Part shown: piece by piece, positions 2,414 to 27,115 of the stretch
Layout of the letters: each line of letters begins with the position of its first letter
Numbering within the stretch: the stretch's first letter is position 1
Source: a virus
Lineage: Duplodnaviria; Caudoviricetes
Virus record (IMG/VR): IMGVR_UViG_2595698395_000001
Span: 1-64,000 of that record
DNA: 64,000 bases
Direction: 5' to 3' (one strand)
Notes under the pieces: generated by a model
The model's database searches: none
What the model was told of the DNA's origin: nothing
The model's input: the letters and a program-made list of their open reading frames with translations, nothing else
Translations under genes and position numbers: made by a program

Positions 2414-3076
2414 TTAATTTCGGTTTGTTCCAAAACTTGGTTTTGTTTTTTGTTGATTATTGGCATTGTATGTTCTTTCCCTTTCTTTCCACGTTTTTAA
2501 TCTTAACGATGTACTGAAGCTTTTTTCTTTTTCCTTTCTAAATTTTTTGTCTTTATCTCCATGTTCTGACCAGTAGTTGTAGAATTTATTTAAAAGATTA
2601 CGATCATATTTTTCTTCAAAAGCTAGTAAGGAATTTTTAAATTCCGCTTTTCTATCTTCAATACTTTTTTTTATAACTTTAACTGTATCTGTATCTGTTA
2701 CTGTATCTGTTACTGTATCTGTTACTGTATCTGTTACTGTATCTGTTACTATGGTATCGGTTGGATTTGTTGAGCTTTGTTTAACACTTTCAACATGTGT
2801 TGAATTTGAGGACTCTTGTTTTCTTTTTTCAGCACTTGCTTTACCTGCTTTAGATCGCTTGCTAACTATTGATTCATAGCGATTTAAGTCTCTTTTTAGT
2901 TGTAATTTTATTGGTTCAAAAACTAAATCTATAATTTGGTTTTCGGGCTCAGGATTTTTATCATTTACATATCTTAGTATGTGTTTTAGTAATTTTCCTG
3001 CTTGTTCGTCTTCTAGTTTTTCTACAGTATGGACCAAATCACAATACATTAGAAATGATTTTTTATCTTTAGCCAT
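2414..3076 (-). CDS. phage replication initiator (DUF6291-like N-terminus)
   Basis: KKSFLMYCD..L.DEQAGKL..I..Y N-terminus, low-complexity TDTV linker, C-terminal FYNYW...RLKTW domain. Confidence 0.8.
   Translation of the reverse strand: MAKDKKSFLMYCDLVHTVEKLEDEQAGKLLKHILRYVNDKNPEPENQIIDLVFEPIKLQLKRDLNRYESIVSKRSKAGKASAEKRKQESSNSTHVESVKQSSTNPTDTIVTDTVTDTVTDTVTDTVTDTDTVKVIKKSIEDRKAEFKNSLLAFEEKYDRNLLNKFYNYWSEHGDKDKKFRKEKEKSFSTSLRLKTWKERERTYNANNQQKTKPSFGTNRN
2683..2750. repeat. 12-bp tandem repeat GTATCTGTTACT x5 within initiator gene
   Basis: exact copies at 2691, 2703, 2715, 2727 and 2739 plus a partial copy. Confidence 0.9.
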
Positions 3077-6115: not shown

Positions 6116-6466
6116 TTATGTTAGTTTTTCGTTATCAAGTAGGCTTGGGATTGATGAGTTAATTTCAGATGGTTCTCTATTCATTATAAAATGCTCAAAC
6201 CTCATATTAAATTCTGCATTTGTCTTTTCTATTTCATTATCATACCAAGTATATCCAATATCATAACCACCTCTTATAATTGATGAATGATTTCTTAAAG
6301 CAGGTTGACCTGTATGCCCCATTCTTCTTGATTTAACGAAATAACTATTAAAATACTCTTCTCCAGATAGCATTTCAGGCTTACCAATTTCTTCTATAAT
6401 TTTTGCAGCAGCTATAGGAGCCACGGCAATACCTAATAAGGATTTTAAAAAACTACTTCTTTTCAT
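6116..6466 (-). CDS. hypothetical protein with Tat-like N-terminus
   Basis: MKRSSFLKSLLGIAVAP. Confidence 0.6.
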   Translation of the reverse strand: MKRSSFLKSLLGIAVAPIAAAKIIEEIGKPEMLSGEEYFNSYFVKSRRMGHTGQPALRNHSSIIRGGYDIGYTWYDNEIEKTNAEFNMRFEHFIMNREPSEINSSIPSLLDNEKLT

Positions 6467-6467
6467 G

Positions 6468-7211
6468 TTAAAATGCGTATTTATTTAGGTTAATACTTAA
6501 TCCCGAATCTGCAATATATGTTTCTTTTATAAATTCTTCTTCGATTTTTCTCTTAAATTCAATTTCGTTGGAGTTTCTATCCGATAAGTGAATTAATGTT
6601 ATTGTTCTTGTTTTTGATAAGTCATTCGCGCGAAGCATATCTTGTAGGTTTTGGAAACTCATGTGGCTAGAAAGTACTCTATCTCTTAAGAATTGGTTCT
6701 CGGAGCCAGATTTTCTTTTTTCTTCAATTATATCTTCGCAATAATTAGCTTCTACGATCCAATGGCTAATGTTAGCAAATTTAAAAGGAGAATATACCGT
6801 ATCAGTAATAAAACAAATACTTCCGGATTCTGGATGGTGCACAACAAAACCAAACGGTTCTTTTGTGTCGTGAATTGTATTAAATCCTAATACGGTATAT
6901 GGTCCAATTTTTACTTTTTTCATTGGTTCTAATATGACTGACCTATGGTGGTCAATCATATTAGTTTCTTCCAATGTTCCTTTAGATGCGTAAATTGGTA
7001 CTCCGGAAGCTGCCAAGTGGTTTATGGCTTTGCAATGATCTTGGTGCCCGTGAGTAAATATACACGCGGACACGTTTTCAAGATTATAGTTAATGGCTTT
7101 TTTTACATCTACTGGATGGACTCCTGCTTCAACAATAAGCATTACACCATCATTATCTGTAAGTAGATAACAGTTACCATTGCTTCCTGAGCCAATTACA
7201 TCTAATTTCAT
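6468..7211 (-). CDS. MBL-fold metallohydrolase (exonuclease partner of RecT)
   Basis: GSGSNGNCY, THGHQDH, HD, TDT, EANY, HLS motifs. Confidence 0.9.
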   Translation of the reverse strand: MKLDVIGSGSNGNCYLLTDNDGVMLIVEAGVHPVDVKKAINYNLENVSACIFTHGHQDHCKAINHLAASGVPIYASKGTLEETNMIDHHRSVILEPMKKVKIGPYTVLGFNTIHDTKEPFGFVVHHPESGSICFITDTVYSPFKFANISHWIVEANYCEDIIEEKRKSGSENQFLRDRVLSSHMSFQNLQDMLRANDLSKTRTITLIHLSDRNSNEIEFKRKIEEEFIKETYIADSGLSINLNKYAF

Positions 7212-11051: not shown

Positions 11052-11441
11052 TTAAATTTGATTTAAAAATTTATAAAATGCAGTTAAAAAAGGTTTTACG
11101 TTAGTTGAATCACTCCATCCTGCAAAACCTATAAAGCCTTCGCCTTCTTTATCTTGAGTATTAAATGAAATAGCCTCTCTTCTTTCAAAGTGAACTTGTT
11201 TTCCGTCTATAACACCTTTAACCATAAAGAAGCATTTTTTTAGGGTTCCATCTTCTTTGTACTCAATATCCCTTTCTCTTAATCTACACAAAGTCATAGT
11301 AAAACCGTCGTTTTCAAAAACAGATAACTCTTCTTTTAAAAGCCTCGTTAATACTCCTATTTCTTTACTGCCAATATCCGAGTAGGTTAACCCTTTTTTA
11401 GATACTTCTTCTCTTAGATCACTTCTTTTCATGTTTTCCAT
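11052..11441 (-). CDS. conserved phage hypothetical protein
   Basis: F.RREAISFN...FIGFAGWSD..N..P motif. Confidence 0.7.
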   Translation of the reverse strand: MENMKRSDLREEVSKKGLTYSDIGSKEIGVLTRLLKEELSVFENDGFTMTLCRLRERDIEYKEDGTLKKCFFMVKGVIDGKQVHFERREAISFNTQDKEGEGFIGFAGWSDSTNVKPFLTAFYKFLNQI

Positions 11442-11526
11442 AATACGTTTTTTAGATTAAATTATTAATGAGTTCAAATATATGTAAATATTTGTAAACT
11501 TGTGTATTTTATTATGAAAAATAATT

Positions 11527-11620
11527 GTTGTTCAATGGTTGTTCAAATTTCATTGGACCAATGACGGCAAGTGCCGCCAGTACTGCATTGACTTCTTTGG
11601 CTCCGTGCCCGGAGTTAGAA
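11527..11620. other. candidate att site (paired GTTGTTCAA arm-type repeats plus tRNA-3'-end-like core)
   Basis: GTTGTTCAA at 11527 and 11538; minus strand CTCCGGGCACGGAGCCA; lies between xis-like and integrase operons. Confidence 0.4.
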
Positions 11621-11715
11621 TACGTTTTTTAAAAGAAATACTTGCACAGTATGTTTTTTGGATATATATTTACATATCTTTACAAATATGTACAGAAATT
11701 AAAAACAAATAAATT

Positions 11716-11895
11716 ATGGAATTATTTACAGAAGTAGAATTTAATAAAAACGAATTTGATAAGATAGATGAAGTCAGATTTAAGTTAGGTGAAGATGGAT
11801 GGGAGGAAATTAACAAGACTGAACATAGAGTTATCAAATCAAATAAAGATGTAGTTGTTGGAGCAGTTAAATATAAATGGAGGCGAATAATTTAA
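11716..11895 (+). CDS. hypothetical 59 aa protein, first gene of array (not in ORF track)
   Basis: MELFTEVEFNKNEF...KWRRII*; stop is part of TAAC. Confidence 0.6.
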   Translation: MELFTEVEFNKNEFDKIDEVRFKLGEDGWEEINKTEHRVIKSNKDVVVGAVKYKWRRII

Positions 11896-11934
11896 CCTAC
11901 AAATCAAAAACTAATTTAATTAAATAAATGAATT

Positions 11935-12273
11935 ATGAATAAGCAGAAAGAAAACAAAGAAACAGAAACTAAGCATAAACTAAGTAATGTGTTATCTCGT
12001 TTGCATGATGTTGGTGCTCATTTCAGGCTTGAAGACTATGAAGATGAATTTGTTTTATCAATAATTGATAGAGGCATTTATCCTAGAATTTGGTCGGATA
12101 ATTTTGCAGATAATCAGGTAGTTATTATTGCTGAAACGGATGATAACTTAATTAACAGAAACACCATTCATTCTAAAGATTGGAAGGAAAGGTGGTATGG
12201 CGAAACTTTAGATGAAGTACTTTATGAAGCTTATGAATGGTTATCATCTTTAAATATCGAAAAAACAACATAA
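11935..12273 (+). CDS. hypothetical cassette protein
   Basis: junction NVLSR (GTG TTA) at 11991. Confidence 0.65.
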   Translation: MNKQKENKETETKHKLSNVLSRLHDVGAHFRLEDYEDEFVLSIIDRGIYPRIWSDNFADNQVVIIAETDDNLINRNTIHSKDWKERWYGETLDEVLYEAYEWLSSLNIEKTT

Positions 12274-12286
12274 AAACAAATGAATT

Positions 12287-12628
12287 ATGATAACAGAAAA
12301 TGATATTAAGATAGTAGAAGCTATTAAAAAGGAAATTGACAAAAAGGCAACGACCAATGAAAATACAATAGATTGGGAAGCAGTACAAAAGATTGAAGTA
12401 CTCGATAGATTAGTAAATAATTTACGTATAGCCAATGTTAGCTACTGTGTCGTTTCTGATGAAGATAAAGCCAATAATTACTATACTGCAGAATGTGGTA
12501 AGTGCGATTGGTGGGGAAGCTCTAAGCTATTAGAGGGCGGTGGATCAATAGCTGATACAGGTGATTATTTTGACTGCTCTTGCCCTGTGTGTGGAAATGA
12601 TGATGTAGGTGAAAGGCATTGTAGCTAA
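12287..12628 (+). CDS. cassette protein with zinc ribbon (CxxC...CPVC)
   Basis: junction GTTAGCTAC 12437 complementary to terminal GTAGCTAAC 12621. Confidence 0.7.
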   Translation: MITENDIKIVEAIKKEIDKKATTNENTIDWEAVQKIEVLDRLVNNLRIANVSYCVVSDEDKANNYYTAECGKCDWWGSSKLLEGGGSIADTGDYFDCSCPVCGNDDVGERHCS

Positions 12629-12688
12629 CGGTTTGTGTATGATTTCGGGCGTGAATTAAGCTAAATATTAATAGATAAAAACAAAATT

Positions 12689-12856
12689 ATGAGTAAGTAT
12701 AAACCAGAAATAGACGAAAACAAACCTTTTGATTTTGAAACAAACTTTGTTGTTTGTCAATGTGAGGAATCAGACATATCTGATAGACATTTGGGTGATG
12801 CAGGGTATGATTGGTGCAAAAATTGCAAAAGGCCATTAGCAGTTATTGATTATTAA
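12689..12856 (+). CDS. 55 aa Cys-containing cassette protein (not in ORF track)
   Basis: MSKYKPEIDENKPF...CQC...WCKNCKRPL. Confidence 0.6.
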   Translation: MSKYKPEIDENKPFDFETNFVVCQCEESDISDRHLGDAGYDWCKNCKRPLAVIDY

Positions 12857-12859
12857 TGA

Positions 12860-12983
12860 TAACGCTTGCAGGTATGTTTAGTGCCTGATTAAATAGTATA
12901 AATTTTTAAAATACAGATAACGATGAAAAAAGAACAGAACTTGAATAATGCAGAAACACAGGCATTAAATATACCTGTTGTTA
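12860..12983 (+). repeat. attC-like hairpin enclosing start of 12923 ORF
   Basis: TAAC-gcttg-CAGGTATGTTTAGTGCCTG pairs with CAGGCATTAAATATACCTG-tt-GTTA. Confidence 0.9.
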
Positions 12984-13228
12984 TGTCCCGTTTTGATATT
13001 GAGCGTAAGGATTTGTATGAATATGACAAACCAAAAGAACGCACAAGAAAACGACTTACTGAAATGTCTGAATGTGGTATGGAAGAAACAGGTATTGCTT
13101 CATTTGGTTATAATGGCATAATGAGTGGTTTGTATATCGAAAAAGTGTGGGGATATTCTGATGAAGATTTCAAAGATTATATGGATTGGGCGAAAGGTTT
13201 AATTGCAGCTTCCTTAAATGGGGCATAA
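12923..13228 (+). CDS. hypothetical cassette protein
   Basis: leader QALNIPVV encoded by right arm; stop in TAAC. Confidence 0.7.
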   Translation: MKKEQNLNNAETQALNIPVVMSRFDIERKDLYEYDKPKERTRKRLTEMSECGMEETGIASFGYNGIMSGLYIEKVWGYSDEDFKDYMDWAKGLIAASLNGA

Positions 13229-13433
13229 CGGTGATAGGTATGGTTAGAAAATTTAACGATTAAATAAAACGAAATGAAAACGCCAGAAGAAATATTAAAT
13301 GAAGTTGCTACTGAAAATATGATAAATATACAGCAAATGGTAACAACTAAACAATTAGCAATAATTGCAATGAGAAGATACGCCAAATTATACCACGAAA
13401 GTAAGGTTAAAAATTTGGATATACAACGTGTTA
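13226..13433 (+). repeat. attC-like site (degenerate arms)
   Basis: TAACGGTGATAGGTATGG...TTTAAC / GTTAAAAATTTGGATATACAACGTGTTA. Confidence 0.6.
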
Positions 13434-13561
13434 GCCAACAACGTGAACTGTTAAAGTTTTTTTCTTCTCAATTAAGCGAGAACCTTGATATAGATGTAGG
13501 AATGAATTATATAACAGAAGAAGATATTGAAGAATGCCTAAAAAACTTTAATTGCGGGTAA
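13274..13561 (+). CDS. hypothetical cassette protein
   Basis: junction LDIQRVSQQRELL; stop in TAAC. Confidence 0.7.
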   Translation: MKTPEEILNEVATENMINIQQMVTTKQLAIIAMRRYAKLYHESKVKNLDIQRVSQQRELLKFFSSQLSENLDIDVGMNYITEEDIEECLKNFNCG

Positions 13562-13668
13562 CAATGCTATATAGCTAACTACACAAACTAATTGAATTAA
13601 AACAATAAATTATGATTAAAGAAAACAGTAACCAAGAAAGCAAAAGCAATGAACTTTATATATTGTTA
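13559..13668 (+). repeat. attC-like hairpin
   Basis: TAACAATgctATATA / TATATATTGTTA. Confidence 0.7.
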
Positions 13669-13836
13669 CCTACTGTAGAAAATACGGACAAAGAAGAACT
13701 AAACTTAATTAACAGTCTAAAAGAATATATAGATTGGTATGGTTGCAGAGATAGTAAAATGGATAAAATACTGCCAATAGAACAACAAGAAGGAATTGTA
13801 GTAACAGCAATGACTTTATTAAAAGAACTAACGTAG
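13612..13836 (+). CDS. hypothetical cassette protein
   Basis: junction ELYILLPTV. Confidence 0.65.
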   Translation: MIKENSNQESKSNELYILLPTVENTDKEELNLINSLKEYIDWYGCRDSKMDKILPIEQQEGIVVTAMTLLKELT

Positions 13837-13852
13837 TATTTTATATTGTTGG

Positions 13853-13977
13853 TAACATATTTGGGTATGGAAAGTACGAGTAAATAAACAGTAATTTTTA
13901 GTAAAACACAAAATAAAGTAAATATGAAATTAAATAGAAATAGTAAGATAAGTAAGTATTTTTTATACCCGTTGTTA
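13853..13977 (+). repeat. attC-like hairpin
   Basis: TAACA-tattt-GGGTATGGAAAGTAC / GTATTTTTTATACCC-gt-TGTTA. Confidence 0.85.
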
Positions 13978-14139
13978 TATGTAGTGCTTACAATACCTTT
14001 TGCGCTTTTTGCAATATTGTACTACAGCTCTAAAATAACACGAAGTTTAAGTTATCTATGCGTTTTTAAAATAGAAAGCGCAAAGCAAGAAATCACAGAC
14101 TTTTGGAGCATAGAAACAGCTTTGGGAGATGTATTTTAA
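13924..14139 (+). CDS. small membrane cassette protein
   Basis: hydrophobic segment right after junction YFLYPLLYVV. Confidence 0.65.
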   Translation: MKLNRNSKISKYFLYPLLYVVLTIPFALFAILYYSSKITRSLSYLCVFKIESAKQEITDFWSIETALGDVF

Positions 14140-14148
14140 CATTACATA

Positions 14149-14400
14149 TAACGTTAAAATATATGGCTAGTTGCGGAATTAATAACTTAAAATAACAAGT
14201 AATGACAGAATTAGACAAAAAGATTAAGGATTTAAAAGACTTTATTAAACAGAAAACAGACCAAGGAACTGCAAACTACTTAGGTAAAGAAATACGAGAA
14301 ATTTGCGGAATGGTAGAAACTGAGCAATTAAATAAAGAGAAAAACAAACTTACCTCTAAAAATGAAGCACTTAACCAGCAATTAATTTTATCTGGTGTTA
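14149..14400 (+). repeat. attC-like site with long loop
   Basis: TAACGTTAAAATATATGGCTAGTTGC / GCAATTAATTTTATCTGGTGTTA, partial pairing. Confidence 0.65.
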
Positions 14401-14546
14401 GCGGTAGTAATTTACTACCTGATGGATGGAAGGTTTATGAATGTACTGACTGCCAAGAGATAAATGTAAAAAAAGATAATAGACAAATAACCGTTGGATT
14501 ATGTGATAACTGTGAACATCCATTATGGAATGATGATGTTGATTAG
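14202..14546 (+). CDS. cassette protein: coiled-coil leader plus zinc-ribbon body
   Basis: junction QLILSGVSGS; CTDC...CDNC after the junction. Confidence 0.7.
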   Translation: MTELDKKIKDLKDFIKQKTDQGTANYLGKEIREICGMVETEQLNKEKNKLTSKNEALNQQLILSGVSGSNLLPDGWKVYECTDCQEINVKKDNRQITVGLCDNCEHPLWNDDVD

Positions 14547-14606
14547 TATTACCGCTAACGGTTAGTTGTATGGCTTGTTGCCGAATAATCACAAAACAAA
14601 ATAAAG

Positions 14607-14918
14607 ATGAACATATACGAATTTAGTTATTCTGGAGGCGAAACCGATTGGGTTTTTGCACCAAACATTAAAGAGGCAAAAGATTTCTATTTAAAATTTA
14701 CAGGTTGTGGCGACTTAACATTAACTACGGTTAAAAGAGTGCCTAAAAGTAAATGGAATGAAATGTACTTATTAGACCCAAATTATAGTGAGCCAGATGA
14801 GGACGAAGAAGATTATAATGAAGAAGATTATTCTTGTGGGTTAAAAATTATAGAAACTTTTGCAGAGTATGCAGAAAGAAATACTATTACTGATATGATA
14901 GCAACAACCGAGTATTAA
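14607..14918 (+). CDS. acidic hypothetical cassette protein
   Basis: 103 aa ORF between orphan arm 14556 and TAAC 14922. Confidence 0.7.
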   Translation: MNIYEFSYSGGETDWVFAPNIKEAKDFYLKFTGCGDLTLTTVKRVPKSKWNEMYLLDPNYSEPDEDEEDYNEEDYSCGLKIIETFAEYAERNTITDMIATTEY

Positions 14919-14921
14919 TGG

Positions 14922-15014
14922 TAACGGCTCTGGGCTATGATTTCGTGCCTATATAATGACGGAACATTGAATTAAGCACCAATCTAACAAGGGTATGAAT
15001 TATAGCCCTTGTTG
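14922..15014 (+). repeat. attC-like hairpin (non-coding)
   Basis: TAAC-ggctct-GGGCTATGATTTCGTGCCT / GGGTATGAATTATAGCCC-tt-GTTG. Confidence 0.85.
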
Positions 15015-15028
15015 TAAATAGTAAAATT

Positions 15029-15181
15029 ATGGCAAAGTATAAGATTGAAATTAACCAAACTTGGAGTGAAGAAGTAATTGTAAATGCAAAGAACGCAACC
15101 GAAGCAAAGAAATTAGCTTGGGAAAAGTGGAAAGCTAAAAAAAGTAACTATAATTTATTTGTGGAGAAAGAACCTGAATAA
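15029..15181 (+). CDS. 50 aa self-contained cassette gene (not in ORF track)
   Basis: MAKYKIEINQTWSEEVIVNAKNATEAKKLAW; flanked by GTTGTAAATAGTAAAATT / AATTTTATTGTTTACAAC. Confidence 0.7.
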   Translation: MAKYKIEINQTWSEEVIVNAKNATEAKKLAWEKWKAKKSNYNLFVEKEPE

Positions 15182-15193
15182 TTTTATTGTTTA

Positions 15194-15390
15194 CAACGAA
15201 AATAGATATGAATTGATTTTTAAACGAATAAATAAGATGAAAATAAAAGAAGCAATACAAGTATTAAAAGACCATAATATATGGCGAAAAGGTGAAAATG
15301 AAGAAGTGCAAATGACAGACCCTAAAAAATTAGGAGTTGCCATTGATACAGTAGTAAATAAGTTTGAAAATTTGTTTATATCTGATGTTA
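15194..15390 (+). repeat. attC-like hairpin enclosing start of next gene
   Basis: CAAC-gaaaat-AGATATGAATTGATTTTTAAAC / GTTTGAAAATTTGTTTATATCT-gat-GTTA. Confidence 0.85.
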
Positions 15391-15554
15391 CCCAATGTGA
15401 AGCCACAAAGACAACAAATAAAATCGAAGAAATACAGGTTTCTGTAGATAAAAAACTATTTGTTGAGTTATATAACTTTGCTTATAAAAAAGCAGTAAAA
15501 ACAAATACAGTAGCAGAATTACACGATATTGATAGAAGGCTTCATGGTGGGTAA
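15237..15554 (+). CDS. hypothetical cassette protein (likely start MKIKEA at 15237)
   Basis: EAI..LK.HN.WRKG....PK.LG.AID leader fused at LFISDVTQC. Confidence 0.7.
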   Translation: MKIKEAIQVLKDHNIWRKGENEEVQMTDPKKLGVAIDTVVNKFENLFISDVTQCEATKTTNKIEEIQVSVDKKLFVELYNFAYKKAVKTNTVAELHDIDRRLHGG

Positions 15555-15600
15555 CGCTAAGTATATGAGCCGTTTTTTCTATGGCTTATATACATTGTTA
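15552..15600 (+). repeat. minimal 49-bp attC-like hairpin
   Basis: TAAC-gctaa-GTATATGAGCC gttttttctat GGCTTATATAC-att-GTTA. Confidence 0.9.
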
Positions 15601-15630
15601 CCTGTTGTACGGATTAATTAAAAATGGAAT

Positions 15631-16359
15631 ATGAAAAGAAACGAAATATATTTAGGGGATTGTTTAGAATTAATGCCTAAACACGTAGAAGATAAAAGTA
15701 TTGATATGATTTTTTGCGATTTGCCTTATGGAACTACACAATGCAAATGGGATAGTATTATTGATTTAGATAAGTTGTGGAACGAATACAGAAGAGTAAT
15801 AAAAGATAATGGTGTAATAGTTCTTTTTGCTTCTCAGCCATTTACAAGTATATTGACAAGTAGTAATTTAAAGATGTTTAAATACTCTTACACTTGGGAT
15901 AAGATAACCAAAACAAACCACTTAAATGCTAAAAAGCAACCATTAAGACAAGTTGAAGATATTTGTGTATTCTACAAAAAACAACCGACTTACAAGCCAC
16001 AAGGATTGATTGAATGTGAAGTTTCTAATTTTAGACCAAATCATTTTAAATATAAAAAAGGTGAAAAGGTTTATGGAGAGCAAAAAGAACATGGTAACAA
16101 AAGCACTTATACAAACTATCCAAGTAACCTAATACAATACAGTAACGGGAATCATAATAGTTTGCACCCTACACAAAAGCCTTTAGATTTAATTGAGTAT
16201 ATGATAAAGACGTACACCAACGAAGGAGATTTAATACTTGATAATACTTGCGGAAGTGGAACAACGGGATTAGGAGCAAAAAATCTTGGACGAAACTTTA
16301 TTATGATGGAGCAAGACCCTAAATACTATGATGTAGCTTGCAAAAGAGTACTAACGTAG
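15631..16359 (+). CDS. DNA methyltransferase (N6A/N4C, beta class)
   Basis: GDCLE, DLPY catalytic motif, HPTQKP, DNTCGSGTT SAM-binding motif. Confidence 0.95.
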   Translation: MKRNEIYLGDCLELMPKHVEDKSIDMIFCDLPYGTTQCKWDSIIDLDKLWNEYRRVIKDNGVIVLFASQPFTSILTSSNLKMFKYSYTWDKITKTNHLNAKKQPLRQVEDICVFYKKQPTYKPQGLIECEVSNFRPNHFKYKKGEKVYGEQKEHGNKSTYTNYPSNLIQYSNGNHNSLHPTQKPLDLIEYMIKTYTNEGDLILDNTCGSGTTGLGAKNLGRNFIMMEQDPKYYDVACKRVLT

Positions 16360-16405
16360 TATTGCAGGTAACAATGTTATATAACTAATTCAAAAAACTG
16401 AATCT

Positions 16406-16642
16406 ATGGAAACTACTGCAAAACAAGTGACTTTAAATATAATAGATGGTAAATTTACATCTTTAGAATTGCAAAATTTACTTCAATTAATTGCACAAGA
16501 GTTGAAATTACAAACTACATCCAATTATGCTAAAGAAAACAAACTATCTTTTAATGGAGTTAAAAACTTTAGGCCTCATATTTTAATTGATGGAATCAAA
16601 TTTCATTCAGACGGAATTATAGAAAATAGCTTACCTTTTTAA
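16406..16642 (+). CDS. small HTH-like protein
   Basis: TSNYAKENKLSFNGVK motif. Confidence 0.65.
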   Translation: METTAKQVTLNIIDGKFTSLELQNLLQLIAQELKLQTTSNYAKENKLSFNGVKNFRPHILIDGIKFHSDGIIENSLPF

Positions 16643-16660
16643 TAAAAAAAACTTCGGGAA

Positions 16661-17947
16661 ATGGCAACAATAAGACTAGTAACAAGAAGCAAGAAAAACC
16701 CTTGCAATTTAAACATTCGATTTTCTGCAGGAAGGGAGAACAACTTCTACTTGCCTACAAAAGTCTTTGTTAATCCAAACCATTGGGATAATAAAAAATC
16801 GAACTACAAAAACTCTAGCGAAATAGAAGATAGAATGATTAAAGCGGCTAAATTTGAACGCTTAAAATCTGATATTTTAAACGAGTATAACACTGCTTAT
16901 ATGAATGGCGAAGTTACCGATCCTCAATGGCTAGAAGAAGTTGTTAAGGACCTGTTTGATCGTCCAGAAAAAGAGAAAGGAAACAAAGTTCGTGAGCATT
17001 TTGTGTACTACTTGGATTTTTGTGAGTATTGGTTGAAGGAAATTGCACCGACCTGGAAGACAGAAAAGAATAAATTCATGTCAAAAAGAGCAATTCAACA
17101 GTACGACACCTTCGTATTGGCCTTTAAAAATTTTCAAAACAGTTCTACAGGAAGGAGATATCGTATAAAAGATGTAAATAGTGTTGTTTTAAACGATTTC
17201 TCGACTTATCTGTGTGACGAATCTAAGTTTGCCCCTACGACATCGAAACGTTTAGTAGGTCGCGTTAAATTCTTTTTAAACAGAGCAGAGAAGACCGGAA
17301 TAAAAACAGATCCAAGCTTTAAAGAACGAGTTTATGTATCTAAAGAGGAAGGAGATATTTTGGTTCCGTATCTTAACGAAGAGGAAATTAGTAGAATTTT
17401 CAATTTAAACCTGGAGCACGATCATATTTTAGATAACATCCGGGATAGTTTTATAATTAGTTTGTGGTCGGGTCTTAGAATTTCGGATTTCAATAATAAC
17501 CTGAAGGCCGATAACATAGAAGGAGATTATATTAGTATAAAAACAAATAAGACTGGTAGTTGGGTGACAATTCCACTTCATAACCAAGTTAAATTCGTGC
17601 TTAGTAAGCGTTTTGGTAATTTGCCAGCTAAATTTAGTGACAAGCTTTTTAATAAGCACATCAAAACAATATGCATGCTTGCCGAAATTGACGAAGATAT
17701 TAAAGGGAAGTTATTCGATAAAGAAACGAAGCGCAAACTTACGGGTATCTATCCAAAGTATAAATTAATTAGTTCGCACTCTGGACGTCGAAGTTTTGCC
17801 AGTAACCTCCATGGCTTCGTGCCTAATCACATACTTTCGGATCTTGGTGGTTGGTCCAGTGAAAAAATGATGCTTCACTATGTTAAACGAACAAAAAAAG
17901 AAAGTGCAGAAATTTTAAAAAACATTTGGGATGAAAAATATAAATAG
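16661..17947 (+). CDS. int: tyrosine recombinase / phage integrase (Bacteroidetes type, arm-binding + SAM-like + catalytic)
   Basis: SGLRISD (R), KTNKT (K), SSHSGRRSFA (HxxR), LGGWSSEKM...Y. Confidence 0.95.
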   Translation: MATIRLVTRSKKNPCNLNIRFSAGRENNFYLPTKVFVNPNHWDNKKSNYKNSSEIEDRMIKAAKFERLKSDILNEYNTAYMNGEVTDPQWLEEVVKDLFDRPEKEKGNKVREHFVYYLDFCEYWLKEIAPTWKTEKNKFMSKRAIQQYDTFVLAFKNFQNSSTGRRYRIKDVNSVVLNDFSTYLCDESKFAPTTSKRLVGRVKFFLNRAEKTGIKTDPSFKERVYVSKEEGDILVPYLNEEEISRIFNLNLEHDHILDNIRDSFIISLWSGLRISDFNNNLKADNIEGDYISIKTNKTGSWVTIPLHNQVKFVLSKRFGNLPAKFSDKLFNKHIKTICMLAEIDEDIKGKLFDKETKRKLTGIYPKYKLISSHSGRRSFASNLHGFVPNHILSDLGGWSSEKMMLHYVKRTKKESAEILKNIWDEKYK

Positions 17948-17948
17948 T

Positions 17949-18197
17949 ATGGAAAATAATAAAAATATTCCTTGGTACGATAAGTCAAAAAAGGATTTAA
18001 TGTTGGATCACAGTAAAGGTTGGGATTGTCCTGATTGTGGAATTAATTTACCTAGCGGTATTGTTGGAATTTCTAGCCATTGGGCGCAGTGCGGAGGTAA
18101 AGAAATGCATGAAAATATTGTTGATTTTTTTGATAGAAAAAGTAATGATTTTAATGAGTTAAAAGATATACTAAAAAATAATACTGATGGAGAATAA
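17949..18197 (+). CDS. hypothetical zinc-finger protein
   Basis: CPDC...HWAQC. Confidence 0.6.
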   Translation: MENNKNIPWYDKSKKDLMLDHSKGWDCPDCGINLPSGIVGISSHWAQCGGKEMHENIVDFFDRKSNDFNELKDILKNNTDGE

Positions 18198-25697: not shown

Positions 25698-25952
25698 ATG
25701 TTTCCAAAAGAAAAAGCGAAAGAGTTGGTTAATAAGTTTAAAAAACATGCAGAAAGTTATTGTTCAATGAGTTCGGGTTTAGAGAGGCTTTCAATAGCTA
25801 ATACTATTTTAATGAACTCTAAGCAATGCGCTAAAATTTGTGTAAAAGAAATAATAACAGAATTAAATAGTATAGAGAGTAAAGATTTAAGTGATTTACA
25901 ATTTTGGAATGAGGTTGATTACGAAATAGATTCAATTCAAAATATAGATTAA
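25698..25952 (+). CDS. hypothetical phage protein
   Basis: PKEKAKELV.KF...KQCA.ICV.EI...W.EV..EI. Confidence 0.7.
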   Translation: MFPKEKAKELVNKFKKHAESYCSMSSGLERLSIANTILMNSKQCAKICVKEIITELNSIESKDLSDLQFWNEVDYEIDSIQNID

Positions 25953-26171
25953 ATGAAACTATTATCTAACGGAAAAGTAATACTAGATCCGCAAGAATAC
26001 GCTAATGTATTAGAAACCATTAAAAGCCAAAAGAAGCTATTAGCAAGCAATAACTTTTACATGGAGAAATGGACTAAAGAAATTAACGCTCTAAATAAAG
26101 AATTAGAGATTAAAGAAACTGAATTAAACGAAAGCCATTGCGGTGGATGTGTTAAAAATAAAAGAGAATAA
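25953..26171 (+). CDS. hypothetical protein
   Basis: ORF abutting upstream gene. Confidence 0.55.
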   Translation: MKLLSNGKVILDPQEYANVLETIKSQKKLLASNNFYMEKWTKEINALNKELEIKETELNESHCGGCVKNKRE

Positions 26172-26326
26172 CTAATGAAGGAGTTAAATGAAAAAATGAA
26201 TTATCATTTTGACAACATTGATAAAGAAAAGTTTAGAAACGATTGGAATAATATTGTAACTGAGTCTATTTCTATTGATTTAGATCCTGATGAATTTATT
26301 TCTTATCACAGATAAAATATAAGGCC

Positions 26327-26638
26327 ATGAAGATACCAAAAAGCTTTAAGTTATTCGCTACTACAATAAACGTTGAGTTCGATAGTGAGACGTTAAGCTA
26401 CAACTCTACATTGGGAGACTGTAGTTTTTGCGACAACAAAATAAATCTTAGCGATAGTTATAAAGGAAATCCTATTCCAGAATCAACAATTGTTGACACG
26501 TTTTATCACGAGCGAACACATGTTATACTCGATGCAATGGGAAGACACGAGTTATCTCAGGACGAAGAATTTGTTGAGGTATTCTCTAGGCTCCTAAGAC
26601 AAGCAGACGAGACTGCGGAATTTGATAAAAGAGAGTAA
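26327..26638 (+). CDS. HExxH zinc-metallopeptidase-like protein
   Basis: TFYHERTHVIL...DEEFV. Confidence 0.75.
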   Translation: MKIPKSFKLFATTINVEFDSETLSYNSTLGDCSFCDNKINLSDSYKGNPIPESTIVDTFYHERTHVILDAMGRHELSQDEEFVEVFSRLLRQADETAEFDKRE

Positions 26639-26644
26639 CCCTTA

Positions 26645-27115
26645 ATGGACGGAAGAAAACTGCTTGCGGAGATTGATGCGTACGCTTCCAAGTGTTGGAG
26701 GCGTATCAATACCCATTACGGTTATTTTACGTACAGCTTTAGTTCCTACAGGCATAAAGTTATGATTGACGATCTTAAAATGAAAGAGTTAATCAATGAC
26801 TGCGAAGAAGGAAAAATTAGTTACCAGGACATTGTATTTTTTATCAAAATAGTAACCATGCTAAAATTTAGCAGAGAATTTCACGAAGCTGCAGTGGTCC
26901 GGATAACCAAAGAAGACATGAAAGGATTCTGTAATAACAACTCATACAAGTCTAGTAAAGAAAAACTTATAGAGTATAAGCTATTGATACCTACCATTAG
27001 CCGGAACCATTTCATAATCAACCCAAGGTACATCAATAAGTTCTACAAAACTAAGGTTGATATGTCGCCAGAGGACTTCAAAGAGTATAAGGAAAAACGA
27101 TTGAATAAAGAGTAA
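26645..27115 (+). CDS. winged-helix/RepL-like protein
   Basis: KLIEYKLL......FIINPRY. Confidence 0.5.
   Translation: MDGRKLLAEIDAYASKCWRRINTHYGYFTYSFSSYRHKVMIDDLKMKELINDCEEGKISYQDIVFFIKIVTMLKFSREFHEAAVVRITKEDMKGFCNNNSYKSSKEKLIEYKLLIPTISRNHFIINPRYINKFYKTKVDMSPEDFKEYKEKRLNKE

Follow-up and report, generated by a model that had tools for sequence, protein, structure and literature searches.

The stretch analyzed here, hereafter the window, consists of the first 64 kb (64,000 nucleotides) of a phage genome of 72,369 bp (Caudoviricetes; IMG/VR record IMGVR_UViG_2595698395_000001). Its segment from 12.4 to 16.4 kb is probably an array of about ten mobile cassettes, belonging to an integron-like, hairpin-based site-specific recombination system of Flavobacteriia phages and serviced in trans. 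The window thereby appears to hold an integron-like array without its cognate recombinase, comparable to a CALIN (cluster of attC sites lacking an integron integrase), beside a probable lysogeny integrase: 8-11 attC-like sites are present in 3.8 kb, and neither an IntI nor a small Xer-like recombinase was found in the 72-kb genome. A first reading of the sequence alone had proposed a platform for gene capture and shuffling located directly upstream of a tyrosine recombinase. The array of cassettes bounded by attC-like sites is retained from this proposal; the adjacent integrase is probably not its enzyme.

Paired sites at gene ends

Gene stops followed by, or overlapping, TAAC or CAAC had been described in the sequence-only reading, and are indeed the rule: this is the case for 11 of the 13 plus-strand open reading frames (ORFs) that fill 11716-16359. 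These 11 ORFs end at the motif or 0-19 nt ahead of it; the exceptions are ORFs 11716-11895 and 11935-12273. We call S the (T/C)AAC site at a gene end and S' its inverted copy (...GTT(A/G)...), which is located inside or ahead of 8 genes of the array. The S consensus is (A/T)ATT(R)-N4 before AAC and, after AAC, usually G or A, 5-7 nt, then (G)TAT(G/A); the S' consensus is ...ATA(C/T)-N2-3-GTT(A/G)-N4-(Y)AGT.... Two types of stem involve S'. In the M stem, its left half is paired with the right half of the upstream S. In the X stem, its right half is paired, across the gene body, with the left half of the S located downstream of its own gene. The M-stem loop (45-250 nt; up to 290 nt when all loops are considered) contains the 5' untranslated region (5'-UTR), the start codon and often the first 16-65 codons.

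All eight pairs of complementary cassette ends listed at the outset were found in place, as runs of 15-18 positions with a few mismatches included (gapless, core-anchored alignment). The hairpins are distributed as follows: five are clear (12860-12983, 13853-13977, 14922-15014, 15194-15390 and 15552-15600), one is partial (14149-14400) and two are weak (13226-13433 and 13559-13668). Their asymmetric bulge is real, with 3-7 nt after AAC versus 0-4 nt before GTT, mostly 5-6 versus 2-3. Once folded, a site is composed of an R box (GTTR-N4-YAGT paired with ATTR-N4-YAAC) and an L box (GTAT(G/A)-N3-5-AGT paired with its partner), each box facing an ATT...AC strand. The two boxes are similar and in inverted order, they are separated by the unpaired asymmetric spacer, and AAC lies at the inner edge of one of them. 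In the core sites of tyrosine recombinases, the cut is expected where AAC sits, at the inner edge of a box. The layout of the folded site corresponds to that of a tyrosine-recombinase core site and of the integron attC, and the conservation of structure over sequence claimed for these imperfect hairpins is supported. The features of attC sites (imperfect inverted repeat, AAC...GTT cores, two boxes, unpaired spacer) are clear or partial in 8 of the 11 sites of the window. At site 14922-15014, a compact local hairpin (14986-15014, AAC-AAGGG-TAT...ATA-GCCCTT-GTT) rivals the long-range M stem, and is favoured by the minimum-energy fold.

Cognate arms pair better than shuffled ones. For X pairs, the mean was -17.8 kcal/mol for cognates versus -11.1 for the 90 non-cognate combinations; for M pairs (right half of S with the next S'), it was -20.2 versus -14.2 kcal/mol. 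Neither cognate mean was reached in 20,000 permutations (p<5e-5), and 7 of the 10 X cognates came first in their row. The right half of S' reached only about -10.4 kcal/mol with the neighbouring S on its upstream side. The composition of the stems was examined on 20 X and 18 M stems from seven arrays (window phage, phi19:3, phi18:3, phi46:3, Freya_10, Freya_6 and P12002L): they comprise 511 Watson-Crick pairs, 71 G.T and 5 A.C, and 19 of the 20 X stems have a G.T at their position 11 (AGT over ATT). Because G.T far exceeds A.C, the plus (sense) strand is selected to pair with itself.

This strand bias, like the common orientation of ORFs and sites, would also be expected if the arms were RNA structures of early transcripts, acting in processing, stability or translational control and, being semi-conserved, serving as recombination hot spots. 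A hot-spot role of this kind has been proposed, according to their abstracts, for the promoter/stem-loop cassettes (PeSLs) of T4-type phages (PMC2839356, PMC4122927). The position of 5'-UTRs, start codons and often 16-65 codons in the loops, the ends of some similarity blocks at 5'-UTR/ATG sequences, and RNA-library contigs from a relative that run across the terminal site (ends of RNAs are not visible in contigs) are in line with this explanation, which we nevertheless consider improbable. It fails to predict that S' matches the distant S of its own gene rather than the adjacent one, that joints are defined to a single nucleotide with almost no flanking identity, and that, in 25 of 42 loci, the last site and the gene of a tyrosine recombinase are 51-55 nt apart (see below). 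In addition, stems span up to 1.17 kb (phi18:3), and Rfam at E <= 5 returned only two matches, both at chance level.

Generic scans hardly reveal the array. The loose S motif is not enriched (19 matches in 64 kb for 20.5 expected), genome-wide scans for AAC...GTT hairpins gave 87 and 83 matches on the two strands, which is background, and anchored inverted-repeat scans with loose thresholds gave likewise background. In the folding check, the sole exceptional site is the 49-nt hairpin 15552-15600 (z = -3.8, folded as 15542-15611). Since motif counts, generic scans and folding energies are mostly null, the signal of the array is covariation and position, not thermodynamic stability. A strict detector was used for comparisons (13/14 positions paired, at most two wobbles, TAT/TAA box after AAC); on the window it gave 7 matches in the array, 1 elsewhere on the plus strand and 1 on the minus strand. 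Outside the array, a 16-nt element (GTTGATTACGAAATAG-like) is present in three copies at 25914, 26484 and 27019, forming direct and inverted anchored repeats (25914-27022) with 13-16/16 positions paired; it seemingly constitutes a separate repeat family.

In the mechanism that we favour, a cassette would extend from one AAC to the next and contain, in this order, the right half of S, the loop, S', the ORF and the left half of the next S, the ORF starting in or just after the M-stem loop. In a circularized cassette, the two S halves would form a single site complementary to S' over its whole length. In the array each S would be a chimera of two cassettes, and S' would for that reason match the remote end of its own gene and not the S next to it on the upstream side, a pairing which a circular intermediate cut at AAC predicts. 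Complementarity of cassette ends is the argument used historically for integron cassettes. Folding would take place as single-stranded DNA. Viewed on the minus strand, the geometry would be that of a classical integron, with the recombinase gene pointing away, a terminal site and all sites in one orientation, except that the ORFs are inverted and start inside the site.

Joints and reshuffling among related phages

A scan of related phages had been set beforehand as a check of the shuffling claim. It revealed that cassette order and content vary, with sharp breakpoints at AAC/GTT cores. The flanks of the array region are 88-98% similar to the Cellulophaga phages phi19:3, phi18:3 and phi46:3 (Pachyviridae), and only 28-43% of 11500-18000 is covered by similarity to these three phages. 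On the left, similarity breaks off at 11718-11724, i.e. at the ATG of the first ORF, and on the right it starts again at 16369 (16357 in phi46:3). Because the flanks are conserved on both sides while the array region is little covered, the interval between them is hypervariable among otherwise close phages.

In phi19:3, cassette 3 (12861-13231) occurs at 99.2% identity and is bounded by AAC on either side, but it is found there after the 13599-14238 block and not before it, i.e. swapped relative to cassettes 5 and 6. Cassette 5 is 84% identical in the unrelated phage phi10:1, its right end falling directly after TAACA. The four Pachyviridae phages carry four different last cassettes on one common backbone, the joint lying exactly between AAC and AATGTTATATAAC. 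Contigs of two metagenome runs provided further joints: one connects 12634 to 15561 (S to S), one matches exactly 14922-15013 and neither side beyond, one matches exactly 15552-15600, and one joins 11704 to 13581; a metagenome contig and RNA-library contigs also break at 16369. Each sequencing run contained at most 8% of the sampled words, and all were used as Logan contigs, which are blind to RNA ends, circles and rare joints; stretches that they leave uncovered are uninformative. The RNA-library contigs match the conserved flanks only (11500-11704 and 16369-16700). Since their loose ends equal phi18:3-type sequence, the array region of a relative is present in RNA libraries. In IMG/VR, a search with ORF 15237 gave one 14-residue match only, and the 29-nt terminal junction used as query gave 0 matches.

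Isolates of the Polaribacter phage Freya provide a natural experiment. Freya_1, 2, 5, 6, 8, 9 and 10 come from one host, are 99.5-100% identical in the array regions compared, and differ by 0.3-4.9 kb of cassettes. All 7 joints of the first six isolates relative to Freya_10 are in S sites: 6 fall exactly after AAC, and 1 inside a 28-nt overlap containing AAC. Freya_1, 2, 5, 6 and 9 join straight to the terminal site, at AAC followed by ACCCCTATAACAAC; this site precedes the ATG of a 271-aa integrase by 47 nt. Identity around the joints ranges from about 15/20 nt down to little beyond AAC (Freya_9), and since so little flanking identity is shared, the joints argue for site-specific over homologous exchange. 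In the regions compared, nested cassette blocks, located after the last common cassette and ahead of the integrase gene, wholly explain the size range of 44.0-48.9 kb from Freya_1 to Freya_10, and a 441-nt stretch of Freya_6 is absent from Freya_10. The paper describing these phages (PMC8776804) makes, in the text available, no mention of cassettes or indels. We also observed four hairpins of ~57-59 nt in which GTT... is directly paired with ...AAC, with no gene between them: 2660-2720 and 6453-6513 in the Freya_10 array, 2259-2318 and 3001-3063 in locus L003. They resemble empty or minimal cassettes, and two are located at Freya indel joints.

Genome comparison thus places strand exchange at or next to the position between AA and C of AAC, on the sense strand, which is the putative folding strand. 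A cut at this point of the sense strand corresponds to a cut between G and TT on the minus strand: the boundary is that of integrons, with complementary cassette ends, the cut being on the sense strand and at the gene-end site. The crossover had initially been placed at GTTA inside the next ORF. GTT joints turn out to be a minority, and since the crossover is at the gene-end AAC, the cassette would be made of a hairpin and a whole ORF, not of an ORF tail and the head of the next ORF.

The minority of GTT joints raises a further, rather speculative possibility. Of 20 units, 12 have S' within the ORF and 8 have it ahead of the ATG. In 10 of the 12 ORF-internal S', GTT is read in frame as a Val codon, for one third expected (9 of 11 when two units with homologous leaders are counted once). 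For two blocks, the end coincides exactly with the GTT of S'. The first (15202-15389, with the 50-codon leader of ORF 15237) has 91.5% identity in Freya, where it is fused exactly at GTT to an unrelated body; the second is a short, leader-only Freya/Gundel match that stops at GTT. Metagenome pieces stop at 15013 and 15600. On account of this in-frame preference, the Freya fusion, the leader-only matches and the metagenome pieces, an ORF-internal S' might be an in-frame fusion joint, at which occasional exchange, on the other strand or at the other box, would transfer N-terminal leaders from one cassette body to another and generate combinatorial early proteins. If true, protein modules would be shuffled besides genes.

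Recombinases associated with the arrays

The gene of the 428-aa integrase of the window starts 289 nt after the terminal AAC. Being the only tyrosine recombinase of the genome, it could itself be the cassette enzyme, with junction 16369 as its attI-like site, and the succession of array and integrase is kept in phi19:3, phi18:3 and phi46:3 despite differing arrays. We rate this assignment as very unlikely. The family is common in Flavobacteriaceae genomes (many of its 549 homologues) and, in IMG/VR, is often found at the extremity of provirus contigs. Around 79 viral loci of the family, site matches are at background density (31 on the plus and 22 on the minus strand in 957 kb). Six of the 31 plus-strand matches belong to a single locus, the 70-kb IMG/VR contig L067, which has the only clear array, and this array ends at a small Xer-like recombinase located between it and the large integrase. 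The 428-aa protein gave no match to integron-integrase models (best named model XerD, 29.5 bits for a cut-off of 329.6) and no sequence match in PDB; searches with this integrase alone in IMG/VR and in genome contigs gave 0 matches. It is probably a lysogeny integrase rather than a cassette enzyme.

Arrays elsewhere adjoin a different enzyme. The Freya recombinase (271 aa, PF13495 and PF00589) is Xer-like, with XerA, XerC and XerD as best named matches, and is unrelated to the 428-aa integrase. Its score is 146 bits on the XerA model; on the integron-integrase model, whose cut-off is 265 bits, it obtains 96.5 bits, in two stretches. Its match to IntI4 (2a3v) spans residues 13-169 only. Neither this small recombinase of the relatives nor the 428-aa protein is an IntI-type integrase with the IntI-specific extra domain. 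In L067 (6491-9311), the array is followed by a Xer-like recombinase of 266 aa, two small ORFs, and a 436-aa homologue of the window integrase (40% identity) located 650 nt beyond the small recombinase. The Freya and L067 small recombinases are 33% identical over their full length (E = 4e-36), and start 47 and 51 nt after the terminal AAC, respectively. As L067 carries both recombinases in a row, the comparison suggests that the lineage of the window has lost the small gene. No trace of it was found in phi19:3, phi18:3 and phi46:3, and P12002L, phi10:1 and Gundel_1 have no PF00589 gene.

To quantify the association, a search with the two small recombinases was performed: it identified 151 viral contigs. 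Eighty were retained, and 50 have at least 3 kb upstream. In these 50 loci, plus-strand site density is 0.345/kb upstream (124 matches in 360 kb) versus 0.025/kb downstream (9 in 354 kb), a 14-fold difference. On the plus strand, 42 of the 50 loci have at least one upstream match and 28 at least two. The last AAC precedes the start of the recombinase match by 51-55 nt in 25 of the 42 loci, most of which have TAAC-NNN-TATATGTA in common. We propose that the cassette enzyme is this Xer-like tyrosine recombinase of ~270 aa, encoded by other phages 47-55 nt past the terminal AAC. Because the window phage has no small recombinase, its array would be serviced in trans, by co-infecting phages or by a host enzyme; service by its own integrase would be less likely.

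An Xer-like enzyme (PF13495 and PF00589) is compatible with yet another explanation, in which S and S' are duplex, alternating inverted binding sites of Xer type, recombined as double strands like the dif modules of Acinetobacter plasmids. S and S' do alternate in inverted orientation, so that inverted sites lie on either side of each leader and each body; joints are seen at AAC as well as at GTT, and modules flanked by Xer sites have been described, as far as the source was available (PMC7399989). Dyad symmetry is, however, absent within a single S, whose variable positions are not conserved but covary with a partner located far away, and the bias of G.T over A.C indicates one strand selected for self-pairing, which duplex sites would not need. 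We consequently find this explanation unlikely. IS200/IS605-type hairpin transposons, miniature inverted-repeat transposable elements (MITEs), ribozymes, RNase III sites and invertible promoters were considered and set aside, as they do not account for the combination of unit-specific arms, AAC joints and a linked recombinase.

Several observations weigh against an array of mobile cassettes as proposed here. Three units (12626-12860, 13226-13559 and 14556-14922) have a weak S' or none. Sites with long loops are not thermodynamically exceptional (whole-site z = -1.9, +2.0, -1.7 and 0.0), G.T wobbles suit RNA as well as single-stranded DNA, and all genes are on the folding strand. By our own count, only 9 of 26 inter-phage block ends inside the arrays are at most 6 nt from an S or S' core; 5 of the 26 fall at start-codon/5'-UTR sequences and the rest inside ORFs. 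As most block ends are outside the cores, other routes of recombination act in the arrays as well. Recombination in the window phage itself is deduced from genome comparison, and the window lacks the small recombinase (best tblastn match E 0.025 over 42 aa). The P12002L sites tested in PMC9892861 could not, from the text available, be confirmed as S/S' hairpins.

Finally, no arrays were found beside 19 + 9 bacterial homologues of the small recombinase. The 19 are genome-contig loci found with the Freya recombinase at 22-36% identity, in which arrays were sought with the strict detector. The 9 were found with the L067 query in 401 Bacteroidota genomes (Cellulophaga itself not covered), at 39-49% identity. 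The stretches of 4-10 kb around these 9 contain three isolated site matches in all, one of which is S-like. It lies in a bacterial genome (G222, locus L214), ~9 kb from a homologue of the small recombinase of 40% identity, and consists of a single 14/14 S'/S pair (87-356) with an S-type right arm (GTTTAGTATAAAAATTGAAGCGG) after it; beyond this stretch there may be a host-borne array.

Cassette content and relation to known systems

The coordinates of the cassettes and neighbouring features are given in Table 1. The only cargo with a name is a DNA methyltransferase, at the end of the array. The other array ORFs encode small proteins without Pfam families, six of which match PHROGs of unknown function, and two proteins have CxxC-rich C-terminal halves after a coiled-coil-like leader, as judged by eye. 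The sequence following the internal S 13559 (AATGCTATATAGCTAAC...) resembles the array-terminal backbone following 16369 (AATGTTATATAACTAAT...), and a homologue of ORF 13612, the next one after S 13559, is the first array gene of phi19:3. The likeness of 13559-13600 to 16369-16405 may be the trace of an older array end or of the fusion of two arrays.

Table 1. Positions of the cassettes and of adjacent features in the window
Feature	Position	Strand	Sites and remarks
Conserved left flank, divergent early-promoter region	11423-11718	.	95.6-96.6% identity to phi19:3, phi18:3 and phi46:3
Two variable ORFs (59 and 112 aa)	11716-12273	+	No S/S' sites; inside the variable region, not hairpin-bounded
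Cassette 1: 113-aa ORF	12287-12629	+	S' 12437, S 12626; 18-position X stem; coiled-coil leader, zinc-ribbon-like body; GTT in frame at codon 51; no right half of an upstream S found
Cassette 2: ORF 12689-12856 (55 aa, phrog_5259)	12630-12863	+	S 12860; no convincing S' (cognate rank 8/10)
Cassette 3: hairpin 12860-12983, ORF 12923-13228 (101 aa)	12864-13229	+	S' 12980, S 13226; 19-bp M stem with 2 G.T; 16-position X stem
Cassette 4: ORF 13274-13561 (95 aa)	13230-13562	+	S 13559; weak arms (M -15.3, X -13.4 kcal/mol)
Cassette 5: ORF 13612-13836 (74 aa)	13563-13856	+	S' 13665, S 13853
Cassette 6: hairpin 13853-13977, ORF 13924-14139 (71 aa)	13857-14152	+	S' 13974, S 14149; 15-bp M stem with 3 G.T; 18-position X stem
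Cassette 7: partial hairpin 14149-14400, ORF 14202-14546 (114 aa)	14153-14559	+	S' 14397, S 14556; X -22.2 kcal/mol, rank 1; GTT in frame; 65-codon leader, then zinc-ribbon-like body
Cassette 8: ORF 14607-14918 (103 aa, phrog_5459)	14560-14925	+	S 14922; no clear S'
Cassette 9: hairpin 14922-15014 (upstream of ATG), ORF 15029-15181 (50 aa)	14926-15197	+	S' 15011, S (CAAC) 15194; X stem with 18/18 positions paired
Cassette 10: hairpin/leader 15194-15390, ORF 15237-15554 (105 aa)	15198-15555	+	S' 15387, S 15552; X -26.1 kcal/mol
Cassette 11: minimal 49-nt hairpin 15552-15600, N6/N4 DNA methyltransferase 15631-16359	15556-16372	+	S' 15597, terminal S 16369; PF01555, E = 1.7e-32
Array-terminal junction, (T/C)AAC followed by AATGTTATATAACTAATTC...	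16369-16405	+	attI-like position
Conserved 78-aa ORF of unknown function (phrog_18952)	16406-16642	+	Between array and integrase
Tyrosine recombinase, 428 aa, Phage_int_SAM_5 and Phage_integrase (PF13102 and PF00589)	16661-17947	+	Sole one in the genome

Integrons and CALINs share with these arrays mostly single-gene cassettes, imperfect hairpins with AAC/GTT cores, R and L boxes and an unpaired spacer, a structure conserved over sequence, complementary cassette ends, and the folding of one strand. Variation at the recombinase-proximal end (Freya isolates), methyltransferase cargo and, in the relatives, a conserved terminal site beside a tyrosine recombinase gene are further points of likeness; the window itself lacks a cognate enzyme, as does a CALIN. 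The differences concern both enzyme and layout. The enzyme of the relatives is Xer-like, of ~270 aa, and well under the score required of an integron integrase (96.5 versus 265 bits). In integrons the ORF precedes attC, and the promoterless cassettes are read from Pc, next to intI and away from it, whereas in the phages the site precedes or overlaps the 5' end of the ORF in 20 of 20 units, often containing the start and the first 16-65 codons, and the genes run toward the recombinase gene, which is co-directional with the cassettes and downstream of them. It is the sense strand that folds, with spacers of 5-6 versus 2-3 nt and a fixed G.T wobble in the R box.

The array is not of a wholly new kind: attC clusters in phages, including Polaribacter sites of the same kind, were published in 2023. 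According to the text available, a screen of 10,705 phage genomes identified 17 CALINs, including that of Polaribacter phage P12002L with two methyltransferases, and one of two tested P12002L sites recombined with attI1 under IntI1, by the bottom strand only (Qi et al. 2023, PMC9892861); Cellulophaga and flavobacteria are not named in its main text. In the P12002L locus we observed three annotated methyltransferases, one homologous to window ORF 15631-16359, and the same S/S' sites bracket the first and third methyltransferase genes. In the literature we found no account of the non-IntI recombinase linked to the arrays, of their mirrored arrangement, of the bias towards the sense strand or of the series of Freya isolates.

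PeSLs (PMC2839356, PMC4122927) are similar in that short repeats flank small, non-conserved early genes in hyperplastic regions, at boundaries of insertion, deletion and replacement. By their abstracts, they are conserved promoter-terminator motifs thought to act via homology; here, no near-identical homology motif is found, since arms differ between units and covary; joints may have no more than AAC in common, and in relatives the arrays are linked to a tyrosine recombinase. The dif modules of Acinetobacter (PMC7399989), as far as they are described in the text available, have in common with the present arrays genes flanked by inverted recombination sites and an Xer-like class of enzyme. A dif-type site is a conserved two-armed duplex with inverted arms and a 6-8 bp spacer, whereas here no dyad exists within S, and the halves are split, inverted and covarying, with a single-strand G.T bias.

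These arrays, if the proposed reading is correct, extend the logic of integrons to marine flavobacterial phages: folded single-strand sites, crossover at AAC/GTT, complementary ends of circular cassettes, and growth or loss of cassettes beside a recombinase gene. For gene capture by hairpins, integrons are the textbook case, and a single enzyme family, IntI, defines them; the phage arrays depart from them by a smaller Xer-like enzyme and a mirrored orientation of sites and genes. Phages would then own a platform on which accessory early genes are carried as cassettes, the sharp mosaic boundaries in the early regions of these phages would be explained, and a second, independent system would be available to understand how tyrosine recombinases read folded DNA. 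In the case of the window, an array that persists without its enzyme predicts that cassettes would be exchanged in trans during co-infection.

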